The notes: a model not told the origin generated them from the letters alone. A DNA stretch of 64,000 bases from Escherichia phage vB_EcoM_SA20RB (OL960581); one strand, 5' to 3'; shown: positions 12 through 53,783, numbered from the stretch's first letter. A program made the numbers and translations.

Positions 12-2189
12 TTAGGCCGCAAGGGCCTTCATAGTTTTAGCGATTTGGGAAACTTCATCATCACTTAAAGAGTTGCGATAACCGATGAAGTCGGAAACAA
101 TACGGAATTTCTTGGTAAACTCAGCAACCATTTTATCACTGTTTTTTGAAGCATTACGTGATAATTCATCAAAAAGATTAGTTACTGTCCAGATGTCATG
201 ACCGATGGTATCTTTTCCACCGTTGAAATATATACCCTGCAATGAACTAACCATATTACCAAGGCGAGTATATTCTTCGGAAACTTCATCTACACTGAAG
301 TACTTCATCATAAAATCTAGTTCAGGATACTTAATAATTTTATCAATATATCGTTTAGCTGAACTTGAATAACCTACATACTTATCATAATCTACAGCAT
401 CAAAAGCATCTACATATAAATCACGCAGAGTTTCAAAAATACATTGGCACTGACCAAGTTCTTTTACCTTTTTCTGCAAAAGCGGACGAATAACATAAAA
501 TTCATTAATACCAATAAGATTAGCCATACGAGTCAAAATACTCGTAGATGGATGACAAAGCGATGTAGTACCATCCATAGAGAAAATATCAGAACGATGC
601 ATATATGCTACATAACCAGTAATTTCATCTGCTTCTGATGTGAGTGTAAATAGTTCCTCTTTTTCCCAGCGTCCGTCTTTAATTTCAAACTTAAATGCAG
701 TAGCAGCTTTAGGACGAGGAGCTTTACTTTTAACTGCCTTCGGAATATAACTTTTAACTAAAGCTTCAATTTCTGACAAATAATGAATGTTAACTTCATC
801 ACTTTCAAACATTGCCATAATATCAGGAAGCAAATCAATCTGCGATTCTACTTCTGGATTAATAAACAGAAGCCGCTCATTGTGATGAATATTTAAGGTG
901 TTATTAAATTCACTATCATCTAACGCGCGTGCTAATCCACGGACAATATTAACACGATTTTTAGTATTATCAATAACAATATTAATTTTTGTCGTATTAA
1001 TACCAAACAGACGATAGCTTGACGCAACGGCTGAAGTTTCATGGCTTTGCTTAATGCGTTTCAGTCGAGGGTCAAGATTTACTTCATACACAACCCCTGC
1101 ATTGCATAACTTACTGTCAGGTTCAAACATGCTCTGCATCTTTTTATATGACAGATTTTTAGTCGTGAATTTGACTGAATTGCTAATCATATAATCTCGA
1201 GCAGAATATCCCATCTTCATCAATTCACGGTATGTATGACGAGGAGATGTAGATTCTTTAAATCGTTTTACATCTTCATTAAATGCCTGCTCACTGAGCT
1301 CTTTAACACGCTCAATAATATTTTTACGAGTACGATCATCTAATGAAAGAGCTTCGCGTGATGGAGCAATATCAAGTGAACCCATTGGAAACTTAATGTA
1401 ATTCACTTCATTGCGGATGCTTAACCAGTTACGATCTCTAATAACACCTTCGATAGGATAAACAATGCCGCCATAGATAGCATACAATCCACCGCGATCT
1501 GGCCAGTATCTTTCTGGATTTACACCGTAATAGTCATCAAAATCCGGAAAATAATCAATTTCGCGGTCAAGACCATTAATGATAGCCAAATCTTTGAATG
1601 GTCGCATGATATAAGAAACTTCATAAGCAAAGTTTCTAAAGTCTTTTTCTTCAACTGGAACTACGATTTCAATACCAGTTTTATCATCTGGACCCATTTC
1701 TTTTACGAATGTAGGTTTAATCTGCGGACCATCACCATCCATGTAAGCTACATAACCACGAATTTCACCTTTATGATATGAAGTAATACTAAATGTATCA
1801 GTATAACTAAACGGAGATTTAGAACCTAAACCAAATCCACCAATGAAATCGTTAGATTCAGCCTTAGATGAACTAAAGTATGAATTATACAACCCAGGAG
1901 AATTATCATCACCCTGAATATCAAAATCGCTCATACCTGGACCAAAATCTCGGCAAACAAATCGCGGATCTAATCGTCCTGGAACTTGAATGATAAATTT
2001 TTCAGGATTTCCATTAAGAGCATGGGCATCAATCATGTTGGTAATCAATTCACGAACCACTGCGCGAATCTTGTTTGTATACAAATCAGATGACAGAATT
2101 TTAAATACTTTAGGATTTGCTGCGATGCTAAATGCCTTTGATTTAGAACCATTACCAAGAATTGTTTCTTTTTCAGTGGTGATAATCAT
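12..2189 (-). CDS. rIIA: rIIA protein (725 aa)
   Basis: 725-aa ORF, ATG start at 2187-2189; size and position at left genome end match T-even rIIA. Confidence 0.85.
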
Positions 2190-2199
2190 AATTTCCTCA

Positions 2200-2403
2200 T
2201 TAATTCATATTGCGTTTAATAACTTCAGCAACTTCTAGTAGTTCATCTTTAGTTGCAGTATCGGATTGAATTTTATCTCTAATATCCTTAAAGCGGTTTT
2301 TAAACTCTTCGGCTTCTCCCATATCGAAAAAGCGTTGAATGATTCTATATTCTCGATGAACTGCTTTATCAAAAAGTTCTAAATTTACTCTATATGATTT
2401 CAT
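2200..2403 (-). CDS. small hypothetical protein (67 aa), T4 rIIA.1 position
   Basis: ATG start; immediately downstream of rIIA-upstream early promoter. Confidence 0.55.
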
Positions 2404-2428
2404 TTCAATATCCTCATTTGCCCAATTA

Positions 2429-2458
2429 ATTATACCACATCCTTGTGGTAAAGTAAAC
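2429..2458 (-). promoter_or_regulatory. T4-type early promoter (GTTTAC -35, TGnTATAAT -10)
   Basis: minus strand reads GTTTAC-17/18nt-TGGTATAAT; plus-strand attata 2429-2434, gtaaac 2454-2459. Confidence 0.6.
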
Positions 2459-4275
2459 TATTGGCTCATCCATTCTTTACGAAGGTCAGCATTATCTCCC
2501 ATGAGCATTTCAAAAAGCTCCTTCCAATTCTCAGGAAGTTTAACAACATCATATACTGGATTTTGAATCATCTCACGATACTCAGATTTTTCCAAAGAGC
2601 CAAGTCCCTTAATATAACGGATGCTATGTTTAGGTAGAGCATCTTTAGCACTCTCATATTCAGCGACTGTATAAAACCATTCTTGTTTTTTACCGACCTG
2701 AGCGATGATTACAGGAGTTTTGACAAAGCGAATTCTTCCTTGTTCAAACAGTTCTGGCCAATTACTGAAAAATCCGAGCAGAGAAGGATAAATGCTTCCT
2801 AGACCATCATGGTCAGCATCGGTCATAATAGCAATATTATGATAATTCAAGTTTTCAGCTTTTTCACCAAGAACTAATCCAGTGATTGCGCAAATATCAA
2901 ACAGTTCTTTATTTTTAAGCATATCAGCATATGACATACCCCAACTGTTGAGAACTTTACCACGCAATGGATAACCGCCATGAAGTTCTTTATCACGAAC
3001 ATCAATAAGATATCCGATAGCAGAATCACCCTCAGTCAAGAAAAGAGTCGTGTCAGCATCTTTACCACAAAGATTCGCTTTAATATGTTTATGAACCTTA
3101 GCTTTAGAAGCCTTTTTAGCTGCTTTAGTTTCTGCTGCTTTTTCTGCCGCCAATTTACGAGCCAAGGCAGCTTCAATAATTGGCATCAAAATAGCTTCAT
3201 TATTTAGAATAGCGCGTGAAATCTTTTTAGCATCAAGTTGAATATGACTACGGATTTCACCAAATGGAGAAGTCAAACGCTCTTTAGTTTGAGAATCAAA
3301 TCGCATGTTTTTCATATCACGAACAAACATAACGATAGTCAAACATTCTTTAACACGTGCTTTAGTTACATCAATTTTGAACTTACGTTTGATTTGTGGA
3401 ATAAGGTCTTCACAAATATCATCCATAACACAGTCAATGTGATGGCCACCATTCTTAGTGTGAATGTTATTCACATAAGTTAATTGGCGAAATCCATCCG
3501 GTGAACGACCAACCGCAATAGAACAATTTTCTTGTTCTTGAACAATAGCATGTTCATCATACTGTCGTGCATATTTCTTAAAATTACCCTGAACCTTTTT
3601 ACCATTAAAGGTAAATTGAATATCAGGATAAACAACAGCAAGTGTCTGGAGACGATCTAGTGTAATGTCAAGATAAACTTGGGACAGCTCATTAGTTTCA
3701 AATGACATAAAATCTGGAATGAAAGTAACACGAGTTCCTTTCCATTTTCCAGGAATAGTTTCCCAGGATTTATTTTCCATGCCATTTGAACAACGAACTA
3801 CAATATTATTTTGACCATCACCAGTTTCACCAACAAACATCACAGAAAAAATGTTAGTTAAACTAGAACCAACACCATTCATACCACCGGTGACACGTTC
3901 TTTATCATCACCGAAGTTACCACCTGCTTTTGGAATAGTCCAAGCAGCAACTGGACCAGGAATTTCTTCACCGGTAGGTGTTTTAACCATCGCTTGTGGA
4001 ATACCGCGACCGTTATCTTCAACTGTTACCTGATTATTTTTAATGGTAACATTAATTTTATTCGCGAATTTAAACTTAGTACGAATACCTTCATCTACTG
4101 AGTTATCGATAATTTCATCAATAAGCTTAACAAGACCAGGTACATACTGAACACTTTCCCATTTACCAAACAGAAAGCGCTCATGCATTTCATTAGCAGA
4201 AGAACCAATGTACATGCCGCTACGCTTTTTGATATGTTCAATATCGCTCAGAATTTTAATTTCATTCTTAATCAT
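2458..4275 (-). CDS. 39: DNA topoisomerase II large (ATPase) subunit, uninterrupted gp39+gp60 equivalent (605 aa)
   Basis: GyrB-like N-terminus; C-terminus matches T4 gp60 tail (..KLPENWKELFEMLMGDNADLRKEWMSQ); ATG at 4273-4275 with GAGGA SD (track start is GTG one codon upstream). Confidence 0.85.
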   Translation of the reverse strand: MIKNEIKILSDIEHIKKRSGMYIGSSANEMHERFLFGKWESVQYVPGLVKLIDEIIDNSVDEGIRTKFKFANKINVTIKNNQVTVEDNGRGIPQAMVKTPTGEEIPGPVAAWTIPKAGGNFGDDKERVTGGMNGVGSSLTNIFSVMFVGETGDGQNNIVVRCSNGMENKSWETIPGKWKGTRVTFIPDFMSFETNELSQVYLDITLDRLQTLAVVYPDIQFTFNGKKVQGNFKKYARQYDEHAIVQEQENCSIAVGRSPDGFRQLTYVNNIHTKNGGHHIDCVMDDICEDLIPQIKRKFKIDVTKARVKECLTIVMFVRDMKNMRFDSQTKERLTSPFGEIRSHIQLDAKKISRAILNNEAILMPIIEAALARKLAAEKAAETKAAKKASKAKVHKHIKANLCGKDADTTLFLTEGDSAIGYLIDVRDKELHGGYPLRGKVLNSWGMSYADMLKNKELFDICAITGLVLGEKAENLNYHNIAIMTDADHDGLGSIYPSLLGFFSNWPELFEQGRIRFVKTPVIIAQVGKKQEWFYTVAEYESAKDALPKHSIRYIKGLGSLEKSEYREMIQNPVYDVVKLPENWKELFEMLMGDNADLRKEWMSQ

Positions 4276-4327
4276 CACTTATCCTCGTTTGGTTTCGGGA
4301 ATATTATACTCCAATAATCATAAAGCT

Positions 4328-4346
4328 AAAGGCCCGAAGGCCTTTT
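4328..4346 (-). other. UUCG-tetraloop stem-loop (RNA stability/terminator-like)
   Basis: aaaggcc-cgaa-ggccttt palindrome; minus RNA loop UUCG; between 39.1-like gene and gene 39. Confidence 0.45.
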
Positions 4347-4605
4347 ATTTAAAACGAATAGTCGAATCCTTGAAGAATAGACCAGAACATACTGTTCCTT
4401 CTACTTTCTGCCCAGTAGGTCCAATAGCACGAAATCCAGTATGTTGGAAATCATTTTCAGAGCAACCGAACCAATTATATCCAGTGATTTCAATATTAGT
4501 AAAACCACTTGAAGACAAAACTTTGGTTGCATTATCAGCATCAGTACATCCTATTAAAGACACTGCTAATACTAATGCTGCAATAGAACGATTAATATAT
4601 TTCAT
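4345..4605 (-). CDS. putative lipoprotein (86 aa)
   Basis: signal peptide with LIGC lipobox; in-frame ATG at 4603-4605 (track start GTG 4614). Confidence 0.5.
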   Translation of the reverse strand: MKYINRSIAALVLAVSLIGCTDADNATKVLSSSGFTNIEITGYNWFGCSENDFQHTGFRAIGPTGQKVEGTVCSGLFFKDSTIRFK

Positions 4606-4610
4606 AATTT

Positions 4611-4982
4611 TCACTTAAATTTAATGGCTTGAAGAAGACTAATAACTCTCAAGCGGCTTCTTTCATCTTTAACTGTAAAGGAAAGAGGGTCACCAGATTT
4701 CATAGTGATAGTGCATCCAAAATCAAAATTTTCGGGAACTTCTTCGAAGAAGTCAAATTCTTCAGCATAAATTAGAACATTACTCTGCGTACTGTGAAGA
4801 ATTTTTCCGTCATTTCCAGATGCTGTACTAATCATCGTAACATTATGACCTTTCATATCTTCAACGATAAATTCGCTTGTAGATATTACAGCATTAATAG
4901 AACCATTCCTATAAATAGCAGACATTAGATATTTCTTTTCTTCGCCTTCGCGAATACGATATTTCTTACCGATTTTAAACAT
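4611..4982 (-). CDS. hypothetical protein (about 123 aa)
   Basis: ORF; in-frame ATG at 4980-4982 (track start GTG 4988). Confidence 0.45.
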   Translation of the reverse strand: MFKIGKKYRIREGEEKKYLMSAIYRNGSINAVISTSEFIVEDMKGHNVTMISTASGNDGKILHSTQSNVLIYAEEFDFFEEVPENFDFGCTITMKSGDPLSFTVKDERSRLRVISLLQAIKFK

Positions 4983-4984
4983 AA

Positions 4985-5161
4985 TCACCCTTTAAGTAAG
5001 TCGTAAAATCCACCATTCACATGCTTAGGAGCGGAAACTAACCGAATAGCAATCCGATGACAATCAGGACATACATCAGTATCCCTTTCAGAAATTTTCT
5101 TGATTTTTTCGTATTCTTTTGCGCAGTCTTTGGATTGACATTTATAATCATAAAGAGGCAT
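4985..5161 (-). CDS. small zinc-ribbon protein (58 aa), not in ORF track
   Basis: hand-translated MPLYDYKCQSKDCAKEYEKIKKISERDTDVCPDCHRIAIRLVSAPKHVNGGFYDLLKG; CxxC..CxxC; AAGGAA SD; start 3 nt after upstream stop. Confidence 0.5.
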   Translation of the reverse strand: MPLYDYKCQSKDCAKEYEKIKKISERDTDVCPDCHRIAIRLVSAPKHVNGGFYDLLKG

Positions 5162-5163
5162 AA

Positions 5164-5583
5164 TTATTCCTTAAAGTGAGCTTTCAACATCTGATACAAT
5201 GACCATGCCTGTTCATTATTTTCAATAATAACTTTCATTACCGGGAATTCTGTGAAATCTTCTATTTGTTCTTGCTCTTCCTGCTCTTGCTCTTCGGCTG
5301 CCTGATATGGATTTTCCACTTCATCAAAGAACCCAGCTTCACTTTTTGAAAGCCAAATAAAGTCTTCATCCAAAACATCTTTACCAGAAGATAGTACTAA
5401 ATTTCCAGTAGATGACAAAATTTTAATAGGACGCCCAAGAGCATCCACATCTAAAATTTTAAAAGGATACATACCTAAACGTCGCGCATAGATTCCGTTA
5501 TCAGTATGGTCTTTAATAAAATTTTCTTGAGCTTGTTTATTTTTAAATTGATACCATTTATTAACTTCAAATTTAATAGCCAT
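5164..5583 (-). CDS. hypothetical protein (139 aa), T4 goF/comC-alpha position
   Basis: ATG start; acidic [10 protein letters not shown] stretch; assignment by position and size only. Confidence 0.45.
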
Positions 5584-5798
5584 TAATAAATTTCCTTCCA
5601 GTAAGTTGTGCCGTCTTCAGTAATTTCACGAAATACACCGTAAATTGGCTGTTTATCACCGACTTTCTCATACACATAAACAGAAGTCAAGTGAGTAAAC
5701 TTGCTAGTATGTTCCTTTTGAACTACTACCAAATTTGGATCAAATAATACATCTTCAAATTCATCATTAGTGCAGTTCTGAACAATTTTACGTTTCAT
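5583..5798 (-). CDS. cef: hypothetical protein (71 aa), T4 cef position and size
   Basis: 71-aa ORF, ATG start, TAATG overlap with downstream gene; assignment by position and size. Confidence 0.45.
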
Positions 5799-5969
5799 TA
5801 CAATTTCCTCATTAATTAAACATTGGAGCGATGCGTTTCAGAAGAGTATCAGCACCTTTAGCGAATTTCCATTTTATTCTCCAAGTTGTTTTCTGTATCA
5901 GTAGTTGATATTGATATAGTACCATAATCAACTACTGATGTATATAGTTTTATGAAAAAATTTTAAACT

Positions 5970-6458
5970 TTATGCATAGAGAGCATTGCTATAGTGTTTA
6001 ATCCAACTTTCAGGAATGACTTTGTATGTTCCTAAAAATACCACATTGTACAGCTTAACACCATCTTCTACCCATTGATCGGTAATGTATCCACACATAG
6101 CACGAGTATAAACAACCCTTCCATCGTCTTTGATAAAGTTAAATTCACAAGGAGCAACGAACTTGATAGCTTGACCGAGTTTCCACTTAAAGTCTACGCC
6201 TACATGCGAAGTATCAATCGTTTCAATTCCTTTAGCAGGAACAGCTTTCAAAAACGCAGACTCAAGAAATTTCGCACGAACATAGCCAAACTGAGGTTTA
6301 GACTTTCCATCTTTAGGAATGATACGCACTTTTACTTCAGAATCTTCATCTTTAACACCGTGTTTAAGCTGAATGCTTACAATTTCAACCAATTTTCCTG
6401 CTGCTTTAGAGCGGGATTTATCAGATACACGAGCTAATTCACCAATATTAATAATCAT
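5970..6458 (-). CDS. motB: MotB-like protein (162 aa)
   Basis: 162-aa ORF with ATG start, downstream of early promoter 6503-6532; size and position match T4 motB. Confidence 0.55.
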   Translation of the reverse strand: MIINIGELARVSDKSRSKAAGKLVEIVSIQLKHGVKDEDSEVKVRIIPKDGKSKPQFGYVRAKFLESAFLKAVPAKGIETIDTSHVGVDFKWKLGQAIKFVAPCEFNFIKDDGRVVYTRAMCGYITDQWVEDGVKLYNVVFLGTYKVIPESWIKHYSNALYA

Positions 6459-30484: not shown

Positions 30485-32167
30485 TTAAACCATTACAGTA
30501 AATCGACCAACTTTCTTCATTTGAAGATGCTGACCATATTCTTGCGGGTCATGGTCTTTATGCGAAATTATAAAAACATTAGTATTTTTCATTGAATTTA
30601 TAATATTAGCTACGCCTTTAATACCTTCGGCATCAAATGACCCATCAAACACTTCATCAAGAATTAATGTACTAATACTAACACCAGATACGATAGAAGC
30701 AATATCACGCCAAGTAAATAAAAGAGCAATATCGATTCGTGCTTTTTCACCTTCACTAAATGAAGCATAACTAAAATCTTCGCGACCACGAGATTTAATT
30801 GTCTCATTAAATTCTTCATCTAATGTAAACACATAATCCGCTTCCATTATTTTAAGATAATGGTTAATCTGCTTATTAAATAATGGAATGTACTTTTTAA
30901 TAATAGCACCTTTAATACCAGAATCTTTGAGCATATCAGTCAAAATTCCTCTGTGGTATTTTTCCATTACTAAATTAGTTTTTGTCTTAACAATTTTATC
31001 AAGTTCTTCTTGAAGCAGTGCTATTTCATCAGCATGGTCAATAAACTCGGATGATGCTTTTTCTATAGCTGCTTTAACTTTTTTAGCTTTATCTACCGTC
31101 GTGATTAGAGATTGCTTTTTATTGCGAATATCATTCGCCAGCGTCTGTTGGGTTTTAATATTATCTCGGTATTCATCAACGAGAACTTTTAAATTATCAC
31201 GATGTGTTGAAAGCTGTTCAAACGAATGCGTGCATTCAGAAACTTTATCTTTAATTTTAGAAACAACTTTATCACCGGAACTTAATTGTGACAAACAGGT
31301 TGGACATAATCCACCTTCGTGATACATATTAATGACTTTATTATACGAGTCAATTTTTGATTTAATTAAAAATGCTTCTTGACCGATTTTATTAAATGCA
31401 TCAGTCGGGTCTTCATCCAAAACAATATTAACTAATCTTTCATTAGCTTCTTCTATTTCCGATTTTAACGTTCTAGCTTCTTTTGCCAAATCATCATACA
31501 TATTCTGTAGACGAGTAAGGTTATCACCAGTTAATTTTTTCTGGCGTTCAACGTTATCATTATATATTTTAATTTGTTGGATAATACTATCTTTTTTAAC
31601 ATCAAGCACTTGGTTTTGTGAATTTAATTCACGTATTAGTGCTTTATTAAGCTTATCCATTTCAGCTAATGTTCCTACCTCGAGCAGGTCTTCCACAAGC
31701 TTTCTTCGTGCAGGGGTCGACAAACCCATGAAAGGGGTATACCCTGCTGTACCAAGGACAACAATCTGCTTGAAACTGGCATATGACATTCCGATAAGCT
31801 GTTCAAATTCTGCTTGGAAATCTTTACTGCTGGCAGATTCATTAAGACGTGTACCGTTAACGGTGATTTCGAAAACGTTTGGTTTTTGTCCTCTTTTGAT
31901 ATAGTACTTTTTCTCATCATATTCCATCCACAGTTCAACTAAAAGTTCTTTCTTATTTGTGCTGTTTATTAATTGACCTTTCTTTACATCACGGAATGGC
32001 TTGCCAAAAAGCCCAAATGTGATGGCTTCTAACATAGTAGACTTACCACCGCCATTTCGTCCAGTAATAAGAGTTTTTTGAACCTTATCTAGTTGAATGT
32101 CAATAGGATTTCCACCTACTGACATTATATTTTGATACCTAACTCGGTTTAGTTTAAAATTCTTCAC
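30485..32167 (-). CDS. 46: recombination nuclease ATPase subunit gp46 (Rad50/SbcC-like, 560 aa)
   Basis: Walker A GRNGGGKST; central coiled coil with CPTC hook; GTG start with AAAGGAA SD. Confidence 0.85.
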   Translation of the reverse strand: MKNFKLNRVRYQNIMSVGGNPIDIQLDKVQKTLITGRNGGGKSTMLEAITFGLFGKPFRDVKKGQLINSTNKKELLVELWMEYDEKKYYIKRGQKPNVFEITVNGTRLNESASSKDFQAEFEQLIGMSYASFKQIVVLGTAGYTPFMGLSTPARRKLVEDLLEVGTLAEMDKLNKALIRELNSQNQVLDVKKDSIIQQIKIYNDNVERQKKLTGDNLTRLQNMYDDLAKEARTLKSEIEEANERLVNIVLDEDPTDAFNKIGQEAFLIKSKIDSYNKVINMYHEGGLCPTCLSQLSSGDKVVSKIKDKVSECTHSFEQLSTHRDNLKVLVDEYRDNIKTQQTLANDIRNKKQSLITTVDKAKKVKAAIEKASSEFIDHADEIALLQEELDKIVKTKTNLVMEKYHRGILTDMLKDSGIKGAIIKKYIPLFNKQINHYLKIMEADYVFTLDEEFNETIKSRGREDFSYASFSEGEKARIDIALLFTWRDIASIVSGVSISTLILDEVFDGSFDAEGIKGVANIINSMKNTNVFIISHKDHDPQEYGQHLQMKKVGRFTVMV

Positions 32168-32427
32168 AAAAGATTCCTTTTAATGTATCTTTTAGACCAT
32201 TCTATCATATCATCATAATCTAAAAAGTATTCATCAAATTCAGCCATGCAAACAACACCTTGTGCTGCTTTTGATGTGATATAAATTATTCCAACATATC
32301 TAGAATCTTCTTCGGTGTAATCAATATTTGCTATGAATTCATCATTAATGTCAAATGTCGAAAACTTCACAGTATGCATCCTTAATACAAGATACAGCCA
32401 TATCTTGTAATGATTTAGGTGTATCAT
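32164..32427 (-). CDS. hypothetical protein (87 aa; start uncertain)
   Basis: ATG; overlaps next ORF by 77 nt in another frame. Confidence 0.4.
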   Translation of the reverse strand: MIHLNHYKIWLYLVLRMHTVKFSTFDINDEFIANIDYTEEDSRYVGIIYITSKAAQGVVCMAEFDEYFLDYDDMIEWSKRYIKRNLL

Positions 32428-45715: not shown

Positions 45716-45958
45716 TTATTCCTTAATTCCTAGTACTTGTTTAAAAGTCTCGTCGTAATCAAGACTTTGACCCGTTTGTTCTTTATGTTTGTATATAATA
45801 TCACTTACTTCTGATAGCATATTTTTATATGAACGAGTTAAAGCAGATTTAAGCACGCTGTATCTATCAGGAAATTTACCGTGTTCATTATAATACGCTA
45901 TTGCTAATTCACGGACTGCCTTTTCAGCAATCTCCATATATTCTTTACGCTTGGTCAT
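45716..45958 (-). CDS. hypothetical protein (80 aa)
   Basis: ATG start. Confidence 0.45.
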
Positions 45959-46262
45959 TTTCTTCTCGGTTAAATCGGTGTTTACAATGACGACATTTAT
46001 AACGAAGATTACTAGTCTGCCAATGAATTAATTGAACCTGTTCAGTACCACATTTTGGACAGTTCGGAACATTCTTAGAAACCCTTTCGCGGCGTTCAAC
46101 CATAACCATAATGGCATCCCAGGCTGGAGGTTTAAAATCTAAATCATCACAACCATGAATCTTTCCACGCATTTCCAGATCGTCTTCTTCACCAGCCATA
46201 ATAATTTTAATTAGACTGGAATTACTTGAAGCTGCAATATCTTCTAATAGACGCTTTTTCAT
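45945..46262 (-). CDS. zinc-ribbon protein (105 aa)
   Basis: CPKC..CRHC motifs. Confidence 0.5.
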
Positions 46263-47188
46263 TTCAATACCTCAATAGCATTACGTAAACCATTTGCTTT
46301 TGCATTAAGAGCTTTTAACAATTTAGTGTGTTCGGCAATTTGGGCTTCAACTTCAATCAAACGAGCATTGAGATATTCGCGTTCTTCGCTCAAGCTATCA
46401 ACCTTTTCTACTTTAGGTTCTTTTACAACTGGCTTATATGTATTAGGGTTCTTCAGTTTAATTAGAATACGTGAACTGTATAACATTGAACCATTATTTT
46501 CGATTTCGTCATACATTTCTACTACGTCCATGATTTTTAACATCATGCGGAGTTTATAAGATAACGAACGAATAGTTTTGTTGTGCTTATTAATTTCTCT
46601 AGCTGTCATGGTGCCGAGATTACGTGAGTAATAATAAGGAACCTGGATATTAATTAACACTGATGAACCACCTGGCTTGTGTGTTACTTCATCAGCAATA
46701 ACCCAGTCCTTAACATGAACTGTATTTGTACGGTCATCACCAGCGGTAAATAGTTTGCGAGCATGCTTAAAAAGCATATTCACTTGGTCATTGAACTGAC
46801 AAGCAAATTTATCAGCAAATTTAGTTTCAGGAATGGTAGATAACCAATCAGCCAAATGAGTCTTTTTAACATCGTTAACAATAGTAAATTCAACCAAATC
46901 GGTTATAGATGTCGCAGATTTAATGAAGCTTGGCTTCATAAAGTTTTTAATGTTATCGCGAGCTACAGTAGAAGATAACATACGAGAACGTTTAAACCAT
47001 TCAAGCAAATTGCCTAACGAATGAGAATAAGCGTTTTGAGTATCTTTACAGATATGATTTTCCTGACCAACATATTGAAGGAAATCACGAAGAATATTAT
47101 TGATTACTGCTCTGTGTCCAATCTGATAACTACGGTGTTTAGTAATAAGACTGTCAAAATAATCAATATAATGTTTACGAGTTTTCAT
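46259..47188 (-). CDS. hypothetical protein with C-terminal coiled coil (309 aa), paralog family member 1
   Basis: ATG start; A-[SR]-[RK]-L-x-G-like motif; heptad-like tail. Confidence 0.55.
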   Translation of the reverse strand: MKTRKHYIDYFDSLITKHRSYQIGHRAVINNILRDFLQYVGQENHICKDTQNAYSHSLGNLLEWFKRSRMLSSTVARDNIKNFMKPSFIKSATSITDLVEFTIVNDVKKTHLADWLSTIPETKFADKFACQFNDQVNMLFKHARKLFTAGDDRTNTVHVKDWVIADEVTHKPGGSSVLINIQVPYYYSRNLGTMTAREINKHNKTIRSLSYKLRMMLKIMDVVEMYDEIENNGSMLYSSRILIKLKNPNTYKPVVKEPKVEKVDSLSEEREYLNARLIEVEAQIAEHTKLLKALNAKANGLRNAIEVLK

Positions 47189-47240
47189 GTTCTTCTCACT
47201 TGGTTAATGATTTATACTCCGAGCCATCCTTGGCTTTAAA

Positions 47241-48242
47241 TTACTTAATTAACTGTAAAGCTTGTTCAAGACGATCCAGGCGATTAACAGATTCTTCCCA
47301 AATCCTTTTAGCCTGCTCATATTCTTTCTGCGCTTTATTAGAAATTTCTAGAGCTTCTTTATAAGCTTTTTCTAGTGCAATAACTTCTGGACGAATTTCT
47401 ACAGGTTCAGGCGAATCATCAAGATTATCCATTAGTTCCTCAAGTGTAATTTCTTCTTTAGGAGTATTCACAATTTCATCACATTTTTGTTGGTAAATTT
47501 CTTTATCAGTCGGTGAGTACGCACATTTCACTTCACGAAGACTAACTACAATTTTATATCCTTCCCAACCACACATATTTTTGAAAGGATATGTATGAAT
47601 ATTTTCTACTGTTTCCATACAAAGTAATGCGGTTTCTAATTGACGAGTTATAGTGCTAGCAATTGAGAAAAATTTATTAATGTTCTTTTGGTTAGTTTCT
47701 GGTGTAAAAAATCCATAATTCACAAAAATAGATACTTTATTTTTATCAAGTTCATATTCTTTTATGATAATCATATCAGAAGCCAAAGGATGAATTTGAC
47801 GATAATCGCCATAACATAATTTAGAAGCTGATTTTAGAAGTTGCTTCTTGAAAAGTCTGAAATTACTAATCCAACGACGAGTAAAAATATTCTCAGGGTC
47901 TTCTTTATTATTAAGATGATAAGAATTAACATCACCGAACCAATTATATCCTACTACATCTTTGGTTCGTTTAATTTCTTTCCCAAAATTACCAAGAATA
48001 TCCCGATTAACCAAATATGAAAGAAGACGAGACTCTTTAAAGGTTTTCTTGATAACATCTTTATCTACACGGCTAGAAATTTTACGAATTTCATGAATAA
48101 ATTTAACAGAAGAAACAATACTTGCGTCAACACTATTGAGCCATTGATTGATAATAGAAATAACGCTATTTTGACCAAACATCGGTATAGCTTTATCATC
48201 AATAACACTATTGAATGATTTGATATATTCGTTACGAGTCAT
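47241..48242 (-). CDS. hypothetical protein with C-terminal coiled coil (333 aa), paralog family member 2
   Basis: ATG 48240-48242 with GAGGAG SD (track start TTG 48293 lies in promoter). Confidence 0.55.
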   Translation of the reverse strand: MTRNEYIKSFNSVIDDKAIPMFGQNSVISIINQWLNSVDASIVSSVKFIHEIRKISSRVDKDVIKKTFKESRLLSYLVNRDILGNFGKEIKRTKDVVGYNWFGDVNSYHLNNKEDPENIFTRRWISNFRLFKKQLLKSASKLCYGDYRQIHPLASDMIIIKEYELDKNKVSIFVNYGFFTPETNQKNINKFFSIASTITRQLETALLCMETVENIHTYPFKNMCGWEGYKIVVSLREVKCAYSPTDKEIYQQKCDEIVNTPKEEITLEELMDNLDDSPEPVEIRPEVIALEKAYKEALEISNKAQKEYEQAKRIWEESVNRLDRLEQALQLIK

Positions 48243-48270
48243 ATTAATCTCCTCAGTAGAAAGTAAGAAC

Positions 48271-48300
48271 ATTATACCACATCCTTGTGGCAAAGTAAAC
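48271..48300 (-). promoter_or_regulatory. T4-type early promoter
   Basis: plus attata 48271-48276, gtaaac 48295-48300; near-identical to promoter at 2429-2458. Confidence 0.55.
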
Positions 48301-49328
48301 TAGTTCAGTGCATTTAGTGCATTGTTCAGTTTAGAACGTTGCTTCGTGAGATTTTTGACTTTTTCTTGAGCTTTTTCTAGCATCTTTTCAGCTTCTAACA
48401 CTTCATTAGTTGCTTTAACGAGTTCATCATCTACTGCCTTGATAGACTTCTCAATCGCATCCGCGTGCCATTTTTCAACAGGTTTAAGACTCGGATTTTC
48501 AACAGGAAGAAAATTCGCTTTATTGAATTTCCATGCATCCTTATTACCTGAACTATACATCCAAAATTTAGGATCGTTTGATGAGTAATTGGATAAATTT
48601 AAATTTAAGTTATCTTGCACTTCTTGCTTTTTCTCTTGCGTGACTTCGTCCTTTCTCAAAAAATCGTATTTAAATGAAATGATCATATCAAGTTCATATG
48701 TTGTTGTGTCTAATTTAAATCGTTCGAAATGCTGTGAAATCTTAGACTGAACAGCAGCAACAACGTCCATATACTTAAATGCTTCTGTCAACTGTGATTT
48801 AAGGCATTCGCAAATTGAAAGAGAATTTTTTGTATTAGGTTTAAAGCTAATTCGTGCAGTTCTGTTATTTTCTTTTAATGGTCTTACTTCCATCTGAAGA
48901 GTATAACCATCAAATTTCAGATTCTTTAAGTTAATATCAGAACCTTTTAATCGACTCGCAGTTGATAAAATTTGCTTTAATTGTCTACGGAACAGAGCAA
49001 TAAATCTCCATTCAATACGATAATGATTTGGATTGAAAAATCCAGATGATAAATCGACCTTACTTTGACCAACGCCTTGAACAAATAGAGGATTTTTATA
49101 ATCGATAGTTTTACAGAAATCGGTGAGCTGCTCACGAGCCGTCATTTGTGTAATATAACCCGCTTTACTAAAATTACGCACCCATTCACTGCTATTCGTA
49201 TACTTAAAGTGATGAATAACACGATTAACTTTATCAGGGTCTAAATTATTTTCACACAAAAATGTCATAACATCACGAGTATAACTGGCATTACGAACCA
49301 TATCTTCAATTTGAGAACGAGTTTTCAT
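48300..49328 (-). CDS. hypothetical protein with C-terminal coiled coil (342 aa), paralog family member 3
   Basis: ATG start; motif ..STASRLKG.. Confidence 0.55.
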   Translation of the reverse strand: MKTRSQIEDMVRNASYTRDVMTFLCENNLDPDKVNRVIHHFKYTNSSEWVRNFSKAGYITQMTAREQLTDFCKTIDYKNPLFVQGVGQSKVDLSSGFFNPNHYRIEWRFIALFRRQLKQILSTASRLKGSDINLKNLKFDGYTLQMEVRPLKENNRTARISFKPNTKNSLSICECLKSQLTEAFKYMDVVAAVQSKISQHFERFKLDTTTYELDMIISFKYDFLRKDEVTQEKKQEVQDNLNLNLSNYSSNDPKFWMYSSGNKDAWKFNKANFLPVENPSLKPVEKWHADAIEKSIKAVDDELVKATNEVLEAEKMLEKAQEKVKNLTKQRSKLNNALNALN

Positions 49329-49336
49329 GGTATTCC

Positions 49337-50227
49337 TTAAGATTTAAGTAAATCAACAATTTTAATTAACTTTTCACGCTCAGATTTAGCTTTACTACTC
49401 AATCCAGATAGTCTGAAAATTTCATCGTCATATTGTTGAATAGAAATATTCAGCTCTTCAATCTGCTTATTAAAATAATCAATTTGTTCAGAATGTTTTT
49501 CGTTACTACGAACTGGTACAGGTTTTGTAGGCAATTTAGTTGAACTGGATTCATCCGGACGATAAATTAAAATACAACTTGAACCAATAGGGCATTTTGC
49601 ACCAGATGAATATTCTAATGTTCCAGCTTCTTTTAAAACTTCAAAAGCTAAACAGAGATGATGCCCCATATTAACATAATCTGTAGAGTGAGCTCTGATA
49701 TAATAATCATCTCCACGAATACTAAATTTAAAGCATTTAAGGTCTTCTGTATTATTGGTCTTAAAAATCATTTGTTTATCTAGACCTTTAGCTAATCGAG
49801 CGCCTAATGCTAATAATCGTCGTTGATTTTCCCACAAATCTGCAATCATTTGGTCAAATGATAACTTCGGCATTAGTCGACCATAAAGGTCATATCCTTT
49901 ATTGTAATTACGAAGGATTTCACTCGCATTAATACGAGACAACGCTCCAATTTTATTAAGGGCTTTCATAATGCGATTAGATAAACTCATTCCAGACCCG
50001 TTTGTTCGCTGTAAATGTTTTTCTAATCCAAATCCAATATCAACTTTAAACTTATCTAAAATTTCAGCATGAACATCTCTGTCGATAACATTCAAATCCA
50101 AAGTTGGGTTAAATCTATGAAAAAATTTATCTGGCTCTCCACGGCGAAGTACAGTCCATTCATTCATCATTTTTTTATTAACTAAAGATTTAATTACTGC
50201 ATTGACATTATTAATTACTACTGACAT
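49337..50227 (-). CDS. hypothetical protein with C-terminal coiled coil (296 aa), paralog family member 4
   Basis: ATG 50225-50227 with GAGGAAA SD (track start GTG 50263). Confidence 0.5.
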   Translation of the reverse strand: MSVVINNVNAVIKSLVNKKMMNEWTVLRRGEPDKFFHRFNPTLDLNVIDRDVHAEILDKFKVDIGFGLEKHLQRTNGSGMSLSNRIMKALNKIGALSRINASEILRNYNKGYDLYGRLMPKLSFDQMIADLWENQRRLLALGARLAKGLDKQMIFKTNNTEDLKCFKFSIRGDDYYIRAHSTDYVNMGHHLCLAFEVLKEAGTLEYSSGAKCPIGSSCILIYRPDESSSTKLPTKPVPVRSNEKHSEQIDYFNKQIEELNISIQQYDDEIFRLSGLSSKAKSEREKLIKIVDLLKS

Positions 50228-50234
50228 ATTTTCC

Positions 50235-50642
50235 TCACTCAATTTCAATTTTACTAAATACACAGAATATGATTGAACAGACTACATAAGCACCACACAC
50301 AGATTGAACTAATACCATCCCAAAGAACCAAACAATATTATCAAACAGTGTCTGTTTTACGTCGAAAGGACGTAAACTTACAGTAATATTATCACCTTTT
50401 TCTATTGAAGAATACATCTCTGGGGAAATATATTCACTAAATCTATAACCGTCTTTGAGTTCATATACGGCAATAAACGATAAACTAGACCCTTTTCCTT
50501 GTGTTCCTGTAATGGTATTAACTACAGTAACATCATAATCTTTATAATGCATATAATCATTAATTGCGTAATAACCATATGCAACTACTACACATAAACA
50601 ACATATCAATAAATTCAATCTTTTAATTATCAACTGTTTCAT
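50235..50642 (-). CDS. membrane protein (135 aa)
   Basis: N- and C-terminal hydrophobic helices. Confidence 0.5.
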   Translation of the reverse strand: MKQLIIKRLNLLICCLCVVVAYGYYAINDYMHYKDYDVTVVNTITGTQGKGSSLSFIAVYELKDGYRFSEYISPEMYSSIEKGDNITVSLRPFDVKQTLFDNIVWFFGMVLVQSVCGAYVVCSIIFCVFSKIEIE

Positions 50643-50697: not shown

Positions 50698-51225
50698 TTA
50701 TGCGAGTACCGTCTTTAACCGTTCTTCAAACTTCCGAAGAGTATTTTGGCGTTCAGCTCTTTGCTTTTTGTAAGTTTCAATACGCTCTGAAATGAGAGTG
50801 TATCGTTCATTTACTGATTCTTTCATAAAATCAGGAATTTCACGAGAAGCTTTAATCTCGTCAAATTTATCAATAACAGCTTGCTCTTCAGCAATTAAGT
50901 TATCATACATTAAAATATCTTTCTTGATGAACTCAATATCTTCTTGAGTTACACGAGATAATTTAGATGCTTTATCCTTTTTGTACTGTTCGTTAGTATC
51001 ACGAGACCAGTGCAATGTACGATTTTTATTCGTATTTTTGTAAATTTCTACAATACCGATCTCATCAATAATAACGATCCAATTCCAACGGGATTTGTAA
51101 ATTTGTCCTCCATCAACAGTGATTTCACCTCCGATTGAGATGTCGTTAAAGAACTTGCTTTGTGCTTCAGATTTAAATTTACCATCGTTGTAATTTACCA
51201 AGTTGAAAATATCTTTAGCGTTCAT
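50698..51225 (-). CDS. hypothetical protein (175 aa)
   Basis: ATG start downstream of promoter 51255-51283. Confidence 0.5.
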   Translation of the reverse strand: MNAKDIFNLVNYNDGKFKSEAQSKFFNDISIGGEITVDGGQIYKSRWNWIVIIDEIGIVEIYKNTNKNRTLHWSRDTNEQYKKDKASKLSRVTQEDIEFIKKDILMYDNLIAEEQAVIDKFDEIKASREIPDFMKESVNERYTLISERIETYKKQRAERQNTLRKFEERLKTVLA

Positions 51226-51689: not shown

Positions 51690-52658
51690 TTATTTCAGAA
51701 GAGTAACCTCAGCAATTTCTTCCCAACCGTTTTTGTCGGTCATAATAAAGTCAGCAAGATAAAGAGCAGTACGCAGTGAAACATTGCGTAAACGGTTAAC
51801 ATTAACTTTCATCCATGATAATGCTTTATAAGTTTCTTCATCAGAAAGACCGCGCTTTTGCATCATGTCAGTTGAAAGAATAACATCTTCAACCCTGACC
51901 ATAATTTCTTCATTAGTATGAACACCCAAATCCAAATAAACCGAGCGGGACACTAATGCTTGTAAATGTGGAGCAAGTTTAGTACCACGGTCTAATTCGC
52001 GGTCAATGTCAACGTTTGTGATAAAAACAATCGTTCCTTTAAATTCAAACTCACGCTCAATGCCTTTTTCTTCTAAGTAAGAAGACGCAGTGCTCCAGCA
52101 GACTTTACGGGTCTCTCCGGTGTCCAGAGCGGCTTTTAGAAGATTAAGAATGTCCATATCAGAGAAAACATCCACATCATCAATCAAAAGGACAGAATTC
52201 TCTTCACGATTATTCCAAAGCTGCTCATAAAGACCAATACCAGAGATTTTACCATTAATGCTTTTATATTCAATGTATCCAATATCATTTGCTTTATTTA
52301 AAGCTTTATCTAAAGAATACGTTTTACCAATACCTGCTGCACCAGAGATAATCAATGAACGAATATTTCCATTAATAATACCATTCGTCATCATTCCCAT
52401 AACATTAAATCTTTTATTAATGCGGGTTTTCATATCTTCATACGATTCTTTAACTTCTTCAACCTTTACACCATCATATGAAATATCTGATTTGTAAACC
52501 CAAACACCGCGACGTTTACCGTCAATTTCAACAAAAACTTTACCATCTCCTTGTGCATCTACCGGAGCATTATCTGGGAACCATTCGCCTAAGAGCTCAA
52601 AAGTTCCAGAGATTTCTTTACCGAAGTAGATACCCTTATTGATAGTTACAGTTTTCAT
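51690..52658 (-). CDS. P-loop ATPase (AAA+-like, 322 aa)
   Basis: Walker A SGAAGIGKT, Walker B VLLIDDVD; ATG 52656-52658 inside conserved promoter-leader cassette. Confidence 0.6.
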   Translation of the reverse strand: MKTVTINKGIYFGKEISGTFELLGEWFPDNAPVDAQGDGKVFVEIDGKRRGVWVYKSDISYDGVKVEEVKESYEDMKTRINKRFNVMGMMTNGIINGNIRSLIISGAAGIGKTYSLDKALNKANDIGYIEYKSINGKISGIGLYEQLWNNREENSVLLIDDVDVFSDMDILNLLKAALDTGETRKVCWSTASSYLEEKGIEREFEFKGTIVFITNVDIDRELDRGTKLAPHLQALVSRSVYLDLGVHTNEEIMVRVEDVILSTDMMQKRGLSDEETYKALSWMKVNVNRLRNVSLRTALYLADFIMTDKNGWEEIAEVTLLK

Positions 52659-52701
52659 TTTATTCTCCAAATCCGTATCAGTTGATAGTTGTATAGTACC
52701 A
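52652..52701 (-). repeat. 50-bp leader block of repeated early-promoter cassette, copy 2
   Basis: identical to 24191-24240. Confidence 0.7.
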
Positions 52702-52745: not shown

Positions 52746-52770
52746 TAAAAAAGGGAGCCCGAAGGCTCCC
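52746..52770 (-). terminator. rho-independent terminator (UUCG hairpin + U6)
   Basis: gggagcc-cgaa-ggctccc with plus aaaaaa 52746-52751. Confidence 0.65.
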
Positions 52771-52772
52771 TA

Positions 52773-53783
52773 TCATTTATAATAACTTCGGTGGTTTTCA
52801 AGATAAACCCTCTCAAGGAAGTCATCCCAGAAACCCATGTCTACTTTTTGTTGCATACCGTTCTTAGAAGCTTCAATAGATGCTGCTTCTACTTGATCGA
52901 CCACATCTTCCAAAAACTCTTGAACAGTTTTAAATGGATGTTTACCAAGCTTCACGTCGAGAATAAATGGAGCGTCTTGGAGTGGATAGACTAAGTCACC
53001 AGTTTTGTAAATTTCCAATAGTTGGAGTCCACCACGACAAGCATGACTCAGAGCTTTCCAGTCAATACCCTCATTCGCTTCAGCCTTACGAGCACGTTCA
53101 CCATATTCAGCATCAAGTTTATTCAAAGACTGCTTAAGCTCAATAAGAGAAAGAGTTGTCTGATATTTACGACCCAACACAGTGTAGAACGTTTGTGGGC
53201 CTGTTTTCTCATGATTATGGAATACCCATTCACAGAATTCGTTCTCTGGAAGACGATGCTTAATATCTTCAACTTTAGTTCGACGCTGCTTAATGGAACC
53301 GTCTTCTTGGTAATCAACCCATTGCTCAGGGATTTGATTAACTACTTTCAATACATCACGCAATGCGGCCAAACGAGAACCCTTGACACCATATTTAGAA
53401 GCTTGCTTGCGGACATATCCTAAATAAGATTTCATGTTAGTTGTATAAAAACGAGAACGATTGTCTTGAATAAACTTCCACACATCAGGTAAATCAGATT
53501 TAACCACTAGTTCAGGTGGAGTGTGAAGCATATCTAATGCTACGGTTTCACCATCTGCTGCTAATTTAAAGAAATATTTAAGACTGTATAGTTCATGGTC
53601 AATATCATCTTTAGTGTTTTTAGATGATGTGTTGTTGGTATTTTTACTCATATGCTCTTTAACATTTCCGATAAGAATATCACGAGCAGGAGGAACAAAG
53701 ATTTCTTTAAAATCTACATCAGATTCTGGGGTAGAAGTTCCATAAAGATGACTACCAAAATAACTTTTCATTACTGTTTTCAT
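52773..53783 (-). CDS. putative nucleotidyltransferase (Pol-beta superfamily fold, 336 aa)
   Basis: N-terminal GSHLYGTSTPESDVDF matches minimal NTase motif GS-x(9-13)-D-h-D/E-h. Confidence 0.5.
   Translation of the reverse strand: MKTVMKSYFGSHLYGTSTPESDVDFKEIFVPPARDILIGNVKEHMSKNTNNTSSKNTKDDIDHELYSLKYFFKLAADGETVALDMLHTPPELVVKSDLPDVWKFIQDNRSRFYTTNMKSYLGYVRKQASKYGVKGSRLAALRDVLKVVNQIPEQWVDYQEDGSIKQRRTKVEDIKHRLPENEFCEWVFHNHEKTGPQTFYTVLGRKYQTTLSLIELKQSLNKLDAEYGERARKAEANEGIDWKALSHACRGGLQLLEIYKTGDLVYPLQDAPFILDVKLGKHPFKTVQEFLEDVVDQVEAASIEASKNGMQQKVDMGFWDDFLERVYLENHRSYYK

Follow-up and report, generated by a model that had tools for sequence, protein, structure and literature searches.

The best-described relative of the genes considered here is nrdC.5 of phage T4. 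A T4 clone with compensatory gene deletions is unable to infect ECOR17, or MG1655 carrying the dsr1 gene of ECOR17, and expression of nrdC.5 enables the T4 deletion mutant to plate again on cells that carry dsr1 (Srikant, Guegler and Laub, eLife 2022, PMC9391042). Dsr1 is a sirtuin defence that depletes nicotinamide adenine dinucleotide (NAD+) and, in the wording of the 2026 literature, "remains poorly characterized". In the literature searched, NrdC.5 is the only phage-encoded factor specific against Dsr1, the other reported route being the replenishment of NAD+; that literature holds no mechanism for NrdC.5 and no mention of the protein families DUF7235, PF26897 or PF26899. We analysed a stretch of 64,000 nucleotides (nt) from Escherichia phage vB_EcoM_SA20RB (OL960581), referred to as a whole as the window, in which the nrdC.5 orthologue stands in an array of four consecutive genes, nrdC.3 to nrdC.6. 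Taken jointly, the evidence is best explained by ancient tandem paralogs that share a head-linker-tail architecture and act as accessory counter-defence binders with diverged targets, a reading to which we assign a probability of about 0.62.

The window is a Tequatrovirus (T4-like) genome, with a megablast identity of 97% to Tequatrovirus genomes in which the genes of interest are annotated nrdC.3 to nrdC.6, and over 46259-50263 it shares 96-97% identity with many T4-type phages of Escherichia and Shigella. The syntenic genes of phage ime09, nrdC.3, nrdC.4, nrdC.5 and nrdC.6, are flanked by nrdC.2 and by nrdC.7 (a predicted membrane protein) and lie downstream of endonuclease VII and the thioredoxin gene nrdC. 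An earlier note on this DNA had described four consecutive genes of similar size, and all four minus-strand open reading frames (ORFs) were recovered exactly as drawn there: the orthologues of nrdC.3 (46259..47188, 309 amino acids (aa); phrog_1435, E=1.4e-116; synteny with ime09), nrdC.4 (47241..48242, 333 aa; phrog_1435, E=9.2e-168), nrdC.5 (48300..49328, 342 aa; phrog_2351) and nrdC.6 (49337..50227, 296 aa; phrog_2257, E=1.3e-152), the last being the most diverged. The nrdC.5 of the window is 95% identical to that of T4 over its full length, differs from it in length by no more than 2 residues and occupies the same locus between nrdC.6 and nrdC.4; judged by sequence it is the orthologue of the published anti-Dsr1 factor, whose activity is known from the T4 allele. 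The guess of the earlier note that the array serves targeting or anti-defence is thus borne out for at least this member.

Common ancestry of the four genes is seen mainly in profile-profile comparison. BLASTP relates nrdC.3 to nrdC.4 (25% identity, E=5e-8) and returns nothing significant for the remaining five pairs, and profile-profile comparison by hhalign from shallow alignments gave P=1e-3 to 0.07 for nrdC.5 with nrdC.4, nrdC.5 with nrdC.6 and nrdC.4 with nrdC.6. The comparison became decisive only once the family profiles of nrdC.3, nrdC.4, nrdC.5 and nrdC.6 (C3, C4, C5 and C6) had been enriched with diverged orthologues of the Dhakavirus and Mosigvirus types, drawn from 13 IMG/VR loci together with the loci of T4, RB69 and IME08. 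The enriched profiles align with P=9e-15 for C3 and C4, P=5e-7 over 232 columns for C4 and C5, P=4e-5 for C3 and C5, and P=1e-3 over 197 collinear columns for C4 and C6; against C6, the merged C4+C5 profile reaches P=1e-5 and the merged C3+C4+C5 profile P=7e-5. All of the roughly 45 control comparisons, which used reversed profiles and the size-matched, unrelated nrdC.10 and nrdC.11 profiles from the same loci, gave P of at least 0.008. The top score among 60 column-shuffled nrdC.6 alignments was 23.3 compared to 33-46 for the real ones, corresponding to z=6-13 (z=13 for C4+C5 versus C6).

A joint MAFFT alignment places the shared features in collinear blocks, comprising FK-SR-LS…L…FGK, a motif helix, L-x-x-A-L-x-x-M-x-x-V and a P-x-P-V linker element. 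C3, C4 and C5 have the M(K)TR-x-x-[YFI]I start in common, and the extreme C-terminus L-x-x-A-[LIV]-x-[LV]-L-K is common to all four families. From the profiles we conclude that nrdC.3, nrdC.4, nrdC.5 and nrdC.6 are in all likelihood ancient, highly diverged tandem copies of one gene, with nrdC.6 as the weakest link, its placement being suggested by the N-terminal half and the motif helix. An old, diversified paralog family, as the earlier note had it, is hence what the profile comparisons recover (P=9e-15 to 1e-5 for the links that carry the family), and significant similarity between profiles is found, weak in direct comparison for the pairs C5-C6 and C3-C6. Among all the ORFs of the window, hmmsearch with the family hidden Markov models (HMMs) revealed no further paralog. 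A gp46-like, Rad50/SbcC-like protein (30485-32179, minus strand) gave a marginal HMM match to the merged profile of nrdC.3 to nrdC.5 (E=2e-4), which we read as an effect of coiled-coil composition and do not accept as homology.

The central motif described in the earlier note was also sought in the minus-strand ORFs. In their 17,363 aa, the loose pattern [AG][ASR][RK]L.{1,3}G has five matches, compared to 0.48 expected from shuffles, and four of the five are those of nrdC.3 to nrdC.6, at residues 124-148 (124-149 with nrdC.4 counted from the ATG at 48272). All on the minus strand, they are ARKLFTAG in nrdC.3 (46739..46762, residues 143-150), ASKLCYG in nrdC.4 (47808..47828, residues 139-145, with K141 and G145 invariant in the family), ASRLKG in nrdC.5 (48942..48959, residues 124-129, with A124, S125, R126, L127 and K128 invariant) and GARLAKG in nrdC.6 (49784..49804, residues 142-148, with G142, A143, R144, L145, A146 and G148 invariant), and they occupy the same columns of the joint alignment. 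Each instance was thus present as the earlier note had quoted it, with the qualification that GARLAKG fits the loosened pattern only. The A-x-[KR]-L…G motif lies on helices (residues 119-148) that immediately precede a β-hairpin in an α/β domain; in the nrdC.4 model it is positioned where the helix 132-142 meets a short helix at 145-148, and the β-hairpin that comes after spans residues 158-174. It looks structural rather than catalytic.

The architecture of the proteins was elucidated mainly from an AlphaFold2 model of nrdC.4 built on the four-family alignment of 51 sequences, which has a mean predicted local distance difference test score (pLDDT) of 84.5 and a predicted template modelling score (pTM) of 0.69, a confidence that is not creditable to the merging of the four families as such. 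The model comprises an N-terminal helical region (residues 1-84), an α/β domain (88-235), a low-confidence linker (~241-284) and a terminal helix of 48 residues. In the low-confidence model of nrdC.5, the secondary-structure elements follow one another as they do in nrdC.4. Transmembrane segments are absent from the four proteins, and the heads are basic, with an isoelectric point (pI) of 9-10. Each protein is predicted to be soluble and basic, of ~34-40 kDa, its helical N-terminal region being followed by an α/β domain, a flexible and variable linker and a conserved amphipathic heptad helix of ~45 residues.

The C-terminal tails are the most regular part of this arrangement. The last 42 residues of each protein form six uninterrupted heptads with hydrophobic residues at 10-11 of the 12 a/d positions, with at most one glycine and no proline; the periodicity exceeds that of shuffled sequences (p=0.0005-0.03), and the register is identical when counted from the C-terminus. 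On the minus strand, the tails are encoded at 46262..46402 in nrdC.3 (10 of 12 a/d positions hydrophobic, p=0.03), at 47244..47390 in nrdC.4 (ending in RLEQALQLIK, p=0.006), at 48303..48482 in nrdC.5 (ending in KLNNALNALN, p=0.0005) and at 49340..49492 in nrdC.6 (ending in KLIKIVDLLKS, p=0.001). AlphaFold2 renders the two tails modelled as single long helices, residues 285-332 of nrdC.4 (pLDDT ~76-85) and residues 283-341 of nrdC.5 (pLDDT 70-93); the heptad-like tail proposed in the earlier note is consequently found in all four proteins, and in these two it is predicted to be helical as opposed to disordered. Weak matches to coiled-coil Pfam families and GCN4-type chains were obtained, and in a sequence-profile search of the PDB the matches were limited to designed helical repeats and coiled coils of the GCN4 type, with non-significant E-values.

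Tails of this kind could also mean that the four proteins are subunits of one hetero-oligomer, held together by related coiled coils and working as one machine instead of as independent inhibitors. The heptad register and the C-terminal motif shared across families would suit such an assembly, as would the tails being the most conserved part within families, surface positions included, the fact that nrdC.6, nrdC.5 and nrdC.4 occur together and in this order across genera, and the tight spacing of the genes, nrdC.6 being separated from nrdC.5 by 8 nt. Between families, however, the tails share just ~20-30% identity. In addition, nrdC.5 expressed by itself from a plasmid was sufficient to rescue the T4 deletion mutant on cells with Dsr1, and viable phages exist that have dispensed with single members: RB69 (nrdC.4), IME08 (nrdC.3), Pinarejo (nrdC.6) and Manna (nrdC.5). 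Because nrdC.5 works by itself and individual members are lost in nature, the hetero-oligomer model is disfavoured and we consider it rather unlikely.

Regarding the wider relationships of the array, sequence and structure give different reach. Judged by sequence, no family extends beyond the T-even-type phages of enterobacteria (553-741 phage records each), and an exhaustive HMM search with the nrdC.4 profile among 1.84 billion representative proteins yielded 7 matches, all of them nrdC.4 or nrdC.3 family members or fragments. By fold the family reaches much further: in a Foldseek search of BFVD, uncharacterised proteins of 300-370 aa from T4-like phages of Acinetobacter, Pectobacterium, Erwinia, Serratia and Klebsiella matched over the full length (E=1e-8 to 1e-4, 10-16% identity), and a weaker match came from Aeromonas phage Aeh1 (E=1.2e-2); the same search also returned an nrdC.3 representative, from Yersinia phage fPS-65 (E=1.7e-7). 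Two of the matching proteins, p120 and p121 of Acinetobacter phage Acj61, are the products of adjacent genes beside nrdC and both have a heptad tail; the alignment of Acj61p120 with the C3+C4+C5 profile spans 153 columns (P=3e-4). The presence of adjacent tailed genes beside nrdC in Acj61 implies that the array is older than the split of Tevenvirinae and Twarogvirinae. This brings three Pfam/PHROG families of unknown function into one proposed superfamily, together with further families from T4-like phages of Acinetobacter, Serratia, Erwinia and other hosts. Uniting the four genes with the more distant Straboviridae families in this way is apparently unreported.

Foldseek against the PDB gave nothing significant, the best matches being TRAPP Bet3 (E=0.016) and the tail terminator gpU of phage lambda (E=0.34). 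The second of these touches on the idea that the α/β head mimics a tail-terminator or tail-completion protein, so that the proteins would be decoys of a virion component sensed by the host (e.g., by Dsr1), comparable to DSAD1 for DSR2. A precedent for the principle is DSR2, whose known trigger is a tail tube protein and which a competing protein of phage origin blocks. Neither PDB match is significant, however, two-layer α/β sandwiches recur widely, and the sequences carry no signal to tail families apart from one isolated PHROG "tail chaperonin" match from a single member; the Dsr1 trigger, moreover, is covered by the literature's statement of poor characterization quoted above. We hold the decoy explanation to be distinctly improbable. 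Its extension to an old modular platform of the Straboviridae, in which a constant coiled-coil tail, providing multivalency or a common docking site, is combined with a rapidly diversifying, tail-terminator-like head as decoy for virion-sensing defence domains, each paralog addressing another sensor and Dsr1 being the first, would be a long shot. If that extension were true, genes that join a head to another tail in frame, as nrdC.6::nrdC.4 of phage Manna does, would represent a natural route to new specificities.

Selection and rearrangement at the locus portray an accessory gene set with a constant tail. The ratio of nonsynonymous to synonymous substitution rates (dN/dS), determined within Tequatrovirus from seven genomes, is 0.29 (0.288) for nrdC.3, 0.18 for nrdC.4, 0.18 for nrdC.5 and 0.09 for nrdC.6, compared to 0.01-0.06 for the flanking nrdC.8 to nrdC.11 and gp49 (five of the six flanking genes scored) and 0.285 for nrdC.7. 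The four genes are thus under purifying selection that is relaxed relative to nrdC.8 to nrdC.11 and gp49. Variation within families is greatest in the α/β domain and least in the tail, a pattern that is clear in C3, C4 and C6 and weaker in C5. The gene nrdC.3 occurs in two allele classes of ~60% identity, and the copy in the window is 60% identical to that of T4 and 95-99% identical to ~270 other Tequatrovirus records, a bimodal distribution. The adjacent nrdC.2 (45945-46262) is likewise divergent, with a mean dN of 0.17. This suggests that recombination exchanges nrdC.3 and nrdC.2 as an allelic cassette whose mosaic boundary lies close to the junction of nrdC.3 and nrdC.4.

The order nrdC.6, nrdC.5, nrdC.4 (followed by nrdC.3 if present) is kept in 17 of 17 loci from Tequatrovirus, Dhakavirus and relatives, and individual members are lost or fused within it. 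Besides RB69, without nrdC.4, and IME08, without nrdC.3, the phage ACG-C40 has a deletion from nrdC.5 into nrdC.3 that leaves an out-of-frame remnant with the nrdC.5 N-terminus joined to the nrdC.3 tail (4805-5216 of its locus), and Pinarejo has lost nrdC.6 save for the tail-coding end (~5001-5141 of its locus). Salmonella phage Manna encodes an in-frame hybrid (Manna_094, 4215-5252 of its locus) that combines residues 1 to ~270 of nrdC.6 with residues 251-333 of nrdC.4; the head of nrdC.6 and the linker and tail of nrdC.4 are joined at a DEI microhomology, with nrdC.5 and most of nrdC.4 deleted. P0056 is an nrdC.5::nrdC.3 hybrid ORF, and P0122 (Shigella phage Sf25) has an internal tandem duplication of 82 residues in nrdC.6. 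The domain architecture, the pattern of variable head and constant tail, and the natural hybrids are apparently new. The annotated NrdC.5 of RB69 (4973-5998 of its locus) has an odd, non-helical C-terminus, and a typical tail (…KLRDAQSVVTNLQLQYSKLFNAMNALKS) is found just downstream in another frame; either a frameshift or an error in the sequence of the RB69 record accounts for the anomaly. In T4, the nrdC.1-6 block can be deleted as a whole on laboratory hosts (PMC9825161), and nrdC.3 to nrdC.6 are non-essential accessory genes.

Dispensability and repeated natural loss or rearrangement bear also on the possibility that the paralogs other than nrdC.5 are general host-takeover or nucleic-acid-binding factors, acting for example on host transcription, the nucleoid or RNA. 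The basic heads (pI 9-10) and the strong conservation of nrdC.6 would be compatible with such a role, and the N-terminal region of nrdC.3 weakly resembles, below threshold, the DNA-binding SAM-like N-domain found in tyrosine recombinases, with E=0.06 in Pfam and E=0.0016 in NCBIfam. The recombinase-domain matches are far under the curated cut-offs, however, the genes are not required in laboratory hosts and have been lost or rearranged repeatedly, and the sole member tested, nrdC.5, is a counter-defence factor; a general takeover function is, in our estimation, unlikely.

Counter-defence by paralogous binders, the interpretation we prefer, can be put in mechanistic terms as follows. The proteins would act as stoichiometric, non-enzymatic binders. 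The fast-evolving α/β head may recognise a host defence protein or its trigger, and the conserved heptad tail may oligomerise the binder to make it multivalent; the paralogs would then have specialised, each on another host defence or on another variant of a defence. Several observations weigh against this interpretation, or against parts of it. Taken alone, C6 aligns only weakly with C3 (P=0.008) and with C5 (P=0.02), and the nrdC.5 model, derived from its own shallow alignment, is poor (pLDDT 51). Oligomerisation of the tails is most likely, as judged from sequence periodicity and predicted helicity only, and direct binding by NrdC.5 is a matter of inference. The dN/dS values below 0.3 give no gene-wide positive selection, and nrdC.6 is highly conserved within Tequatrovirus (mostly 95-99%), which is atypical for a fast arms-race gene. 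Finally, function has been demonstrated for nrdC.5 alone, the literature searched containing no published function for nrdC.3, nrdC.4 or nrdC.6. These three are good candidates for further counter-defence proteins. The study thereby offers three immediate counter-defence candidates in the best-studied phage, and a head-linker-tail domain map for dissecting the action of NrdC.5.

The relationships described call for some revision of the annotation of the locus. That no known domain could be recognised, as the earlier note had stated, does not hold: nrdC.5 matches DUF7235 (PF23882) with 420.7 bits against a cut-off of 30 and over its full length (residues 1-342). The other three gave no PF23882 match in the Pfam scan, and precomputed annotation assigns PF26897 to nrdC.4 homologues at 35-94% identity and PF26899 to nrdC.6 homologues. 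All three are families of unknown function. PHROGs already combines nrdC.3 and nrdC.4 in phrog_1435, and phrog_26858 is matched by nrdC.4 and nrdC.5; of the 51 sequences in the four-family alignment, 17 match it. The label "thioredoxin", carried by many GenBank records, was rejected, there being no thioredoxin or glutaredoxin match in the Pfam and NCBIfam scans and no CxxC in any of the four proteins; it is a widespread misannotation inherited from the nrdC.x gene names. The same scans gave no match to an enzyme family. Matches to PHL, Phage_int_SAM_1, XerC/D, Cas6b_C, AAA_23, CofH and SEC10/PgrA were dismissed as all far under the cut-offs.

Start codons were assigned with due regard to longer alternatives, which exist for nrdC.4 (TTG at 48293 and ATG at 48272) and nrdC.6 (GTG at 50263). 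A Shine-Dalgarno sequence (GAGGAG, AAGGA, GAGGA) precedes each ATG chosen in the earlier note, and the N-termini MTRNEYI and MS[VQ][VA]IN are conserved within families. A putative sigma-70 or T4-early-like promoter, GTTTAC-17-TGnTATAAT, also given as TTTACT-17-TATAAT with extended TG, is situated between nrdC.5 and nrdC.4 (48271..48299, minus strand); it is a consensus match only, scoring 10 of 12 in the scan, and overlaps the alternative nrdC.4 ATG at 48272. The ATGs originally chosen are preferred because of the Shine-Dalgarno sequences, the conserved family N-termini and the promoter lying over the alternative nrdC.4 ATG, and the longer extensions of nrdC.4 and nrdC.6 are not true starts. 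The predicted promoter would be consistent with the description of nrdC.5 as an early gene.

The genes upstream of the array provide additional points of reference. The predicted small membrane protein gene nrdC.7 (50235-50642, minus strand) lies directly upstream of nrdC.6 with a gap of 7 nt; its dN/dS of 0.285 is near the top of the region (nrdC.3, 0.288) and ~5 times that of nrdC.8 to nrdC.11 and gp49, and in RB69 it is placed elsewhere in the locus, between nrdC and nrdC.2. The nrdC.8 gene (50698-51225, minus strand) encodes a protein of 175 aa with a charged, helical C-terminal tail (…YKKQRAERQNTLRKFEERLKTVLA), and its mRNA is down-regulated in DRT1-expressing cells (2026 DRT1 paper). Considered as a fifth member of the family, nrdC.8 was rejected, with hhalign giving P=0.04-0.19 against all family profiles, within the control range. 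Further upstream, nrdC.10 (51690-52670, minus strand) has the P-loop GAAGIGKT and is often mislabelled thioredoxin, and nrdC.11 (52773-53783, minus strand) is annotated as nucleotidyltransferase in related phages; both are strongly conserved, with dN/dS of ~0.06. A strong GC-rich hairpin, AGGGAGCC-TTCG-GGCTCCCT, is found at 52752-52771 on both strands, and on the minus strand TTTTTATTT follows it. The element resembles a terminator and is located just upstream of nrdC.10. In Acj61, the genome with two genes of the nrdC.3-.6 type also encodes a nicotinamide phosphoribosyltransferase and a ribose-phosphate pyrophosphokinase (1229-3938 of its locus), an enzyme pair that resembles an NAD+ salvage or reconstitution-like route, another way past NAD+-depleting defences.

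Lastly, the array can be set against the systems to which it bears resemblance. T4 NrdC.5 is the immediate precedent, yet the other three genes of the window are related to it at the profile-profile level only and have no PF23882 match, and the publication on NrdC.5 describes neither paralogy, nor domain architecture, nor mechanism (PMC9391042). DSAD1, the anti-DSR2 protein of SPbeta-like phages, is like NrdC.5 a phage protein that neutralises a NADase defence with a SIR2 domain, and it is a non-enzymatic binder, which is the mode suggested here for nrdC.3 to nrdC.6. This likeness is functional only: DSAD1 belongs to another phage group, is directed to DSR2 and not Dsr1, and is not reported as a tandem paralog array with a coiled-coil tail. 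To gpU-like tail terminators there is no sequence similarity and no significant Foldseek match; the nrdC proteins differ from them by an additional N-terminal helical region and the coiled-coil tail, and also in their setting, with nrdC.5 classed as early and the array residing among non-structural accessory genes. With the T4 dmd-tifA-adfA "anti-TA (toxin-antitoxin) island", anti-CRISPR loci and anti-restriction islands, the array has in common that the genes are early, dispensable and variably present, and that they affect host range. The gene nrdC.5 is already known, both as counter-defence gene and as DUF7235, and the array would be an instance of phage accessory counter-defence proteins and not a new kind of system. 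What sets it apart from those islands is that they group unrelated genes, whereas nrdC.3 to nrdC.6 constitute one tandemly expanded family with one architecture.

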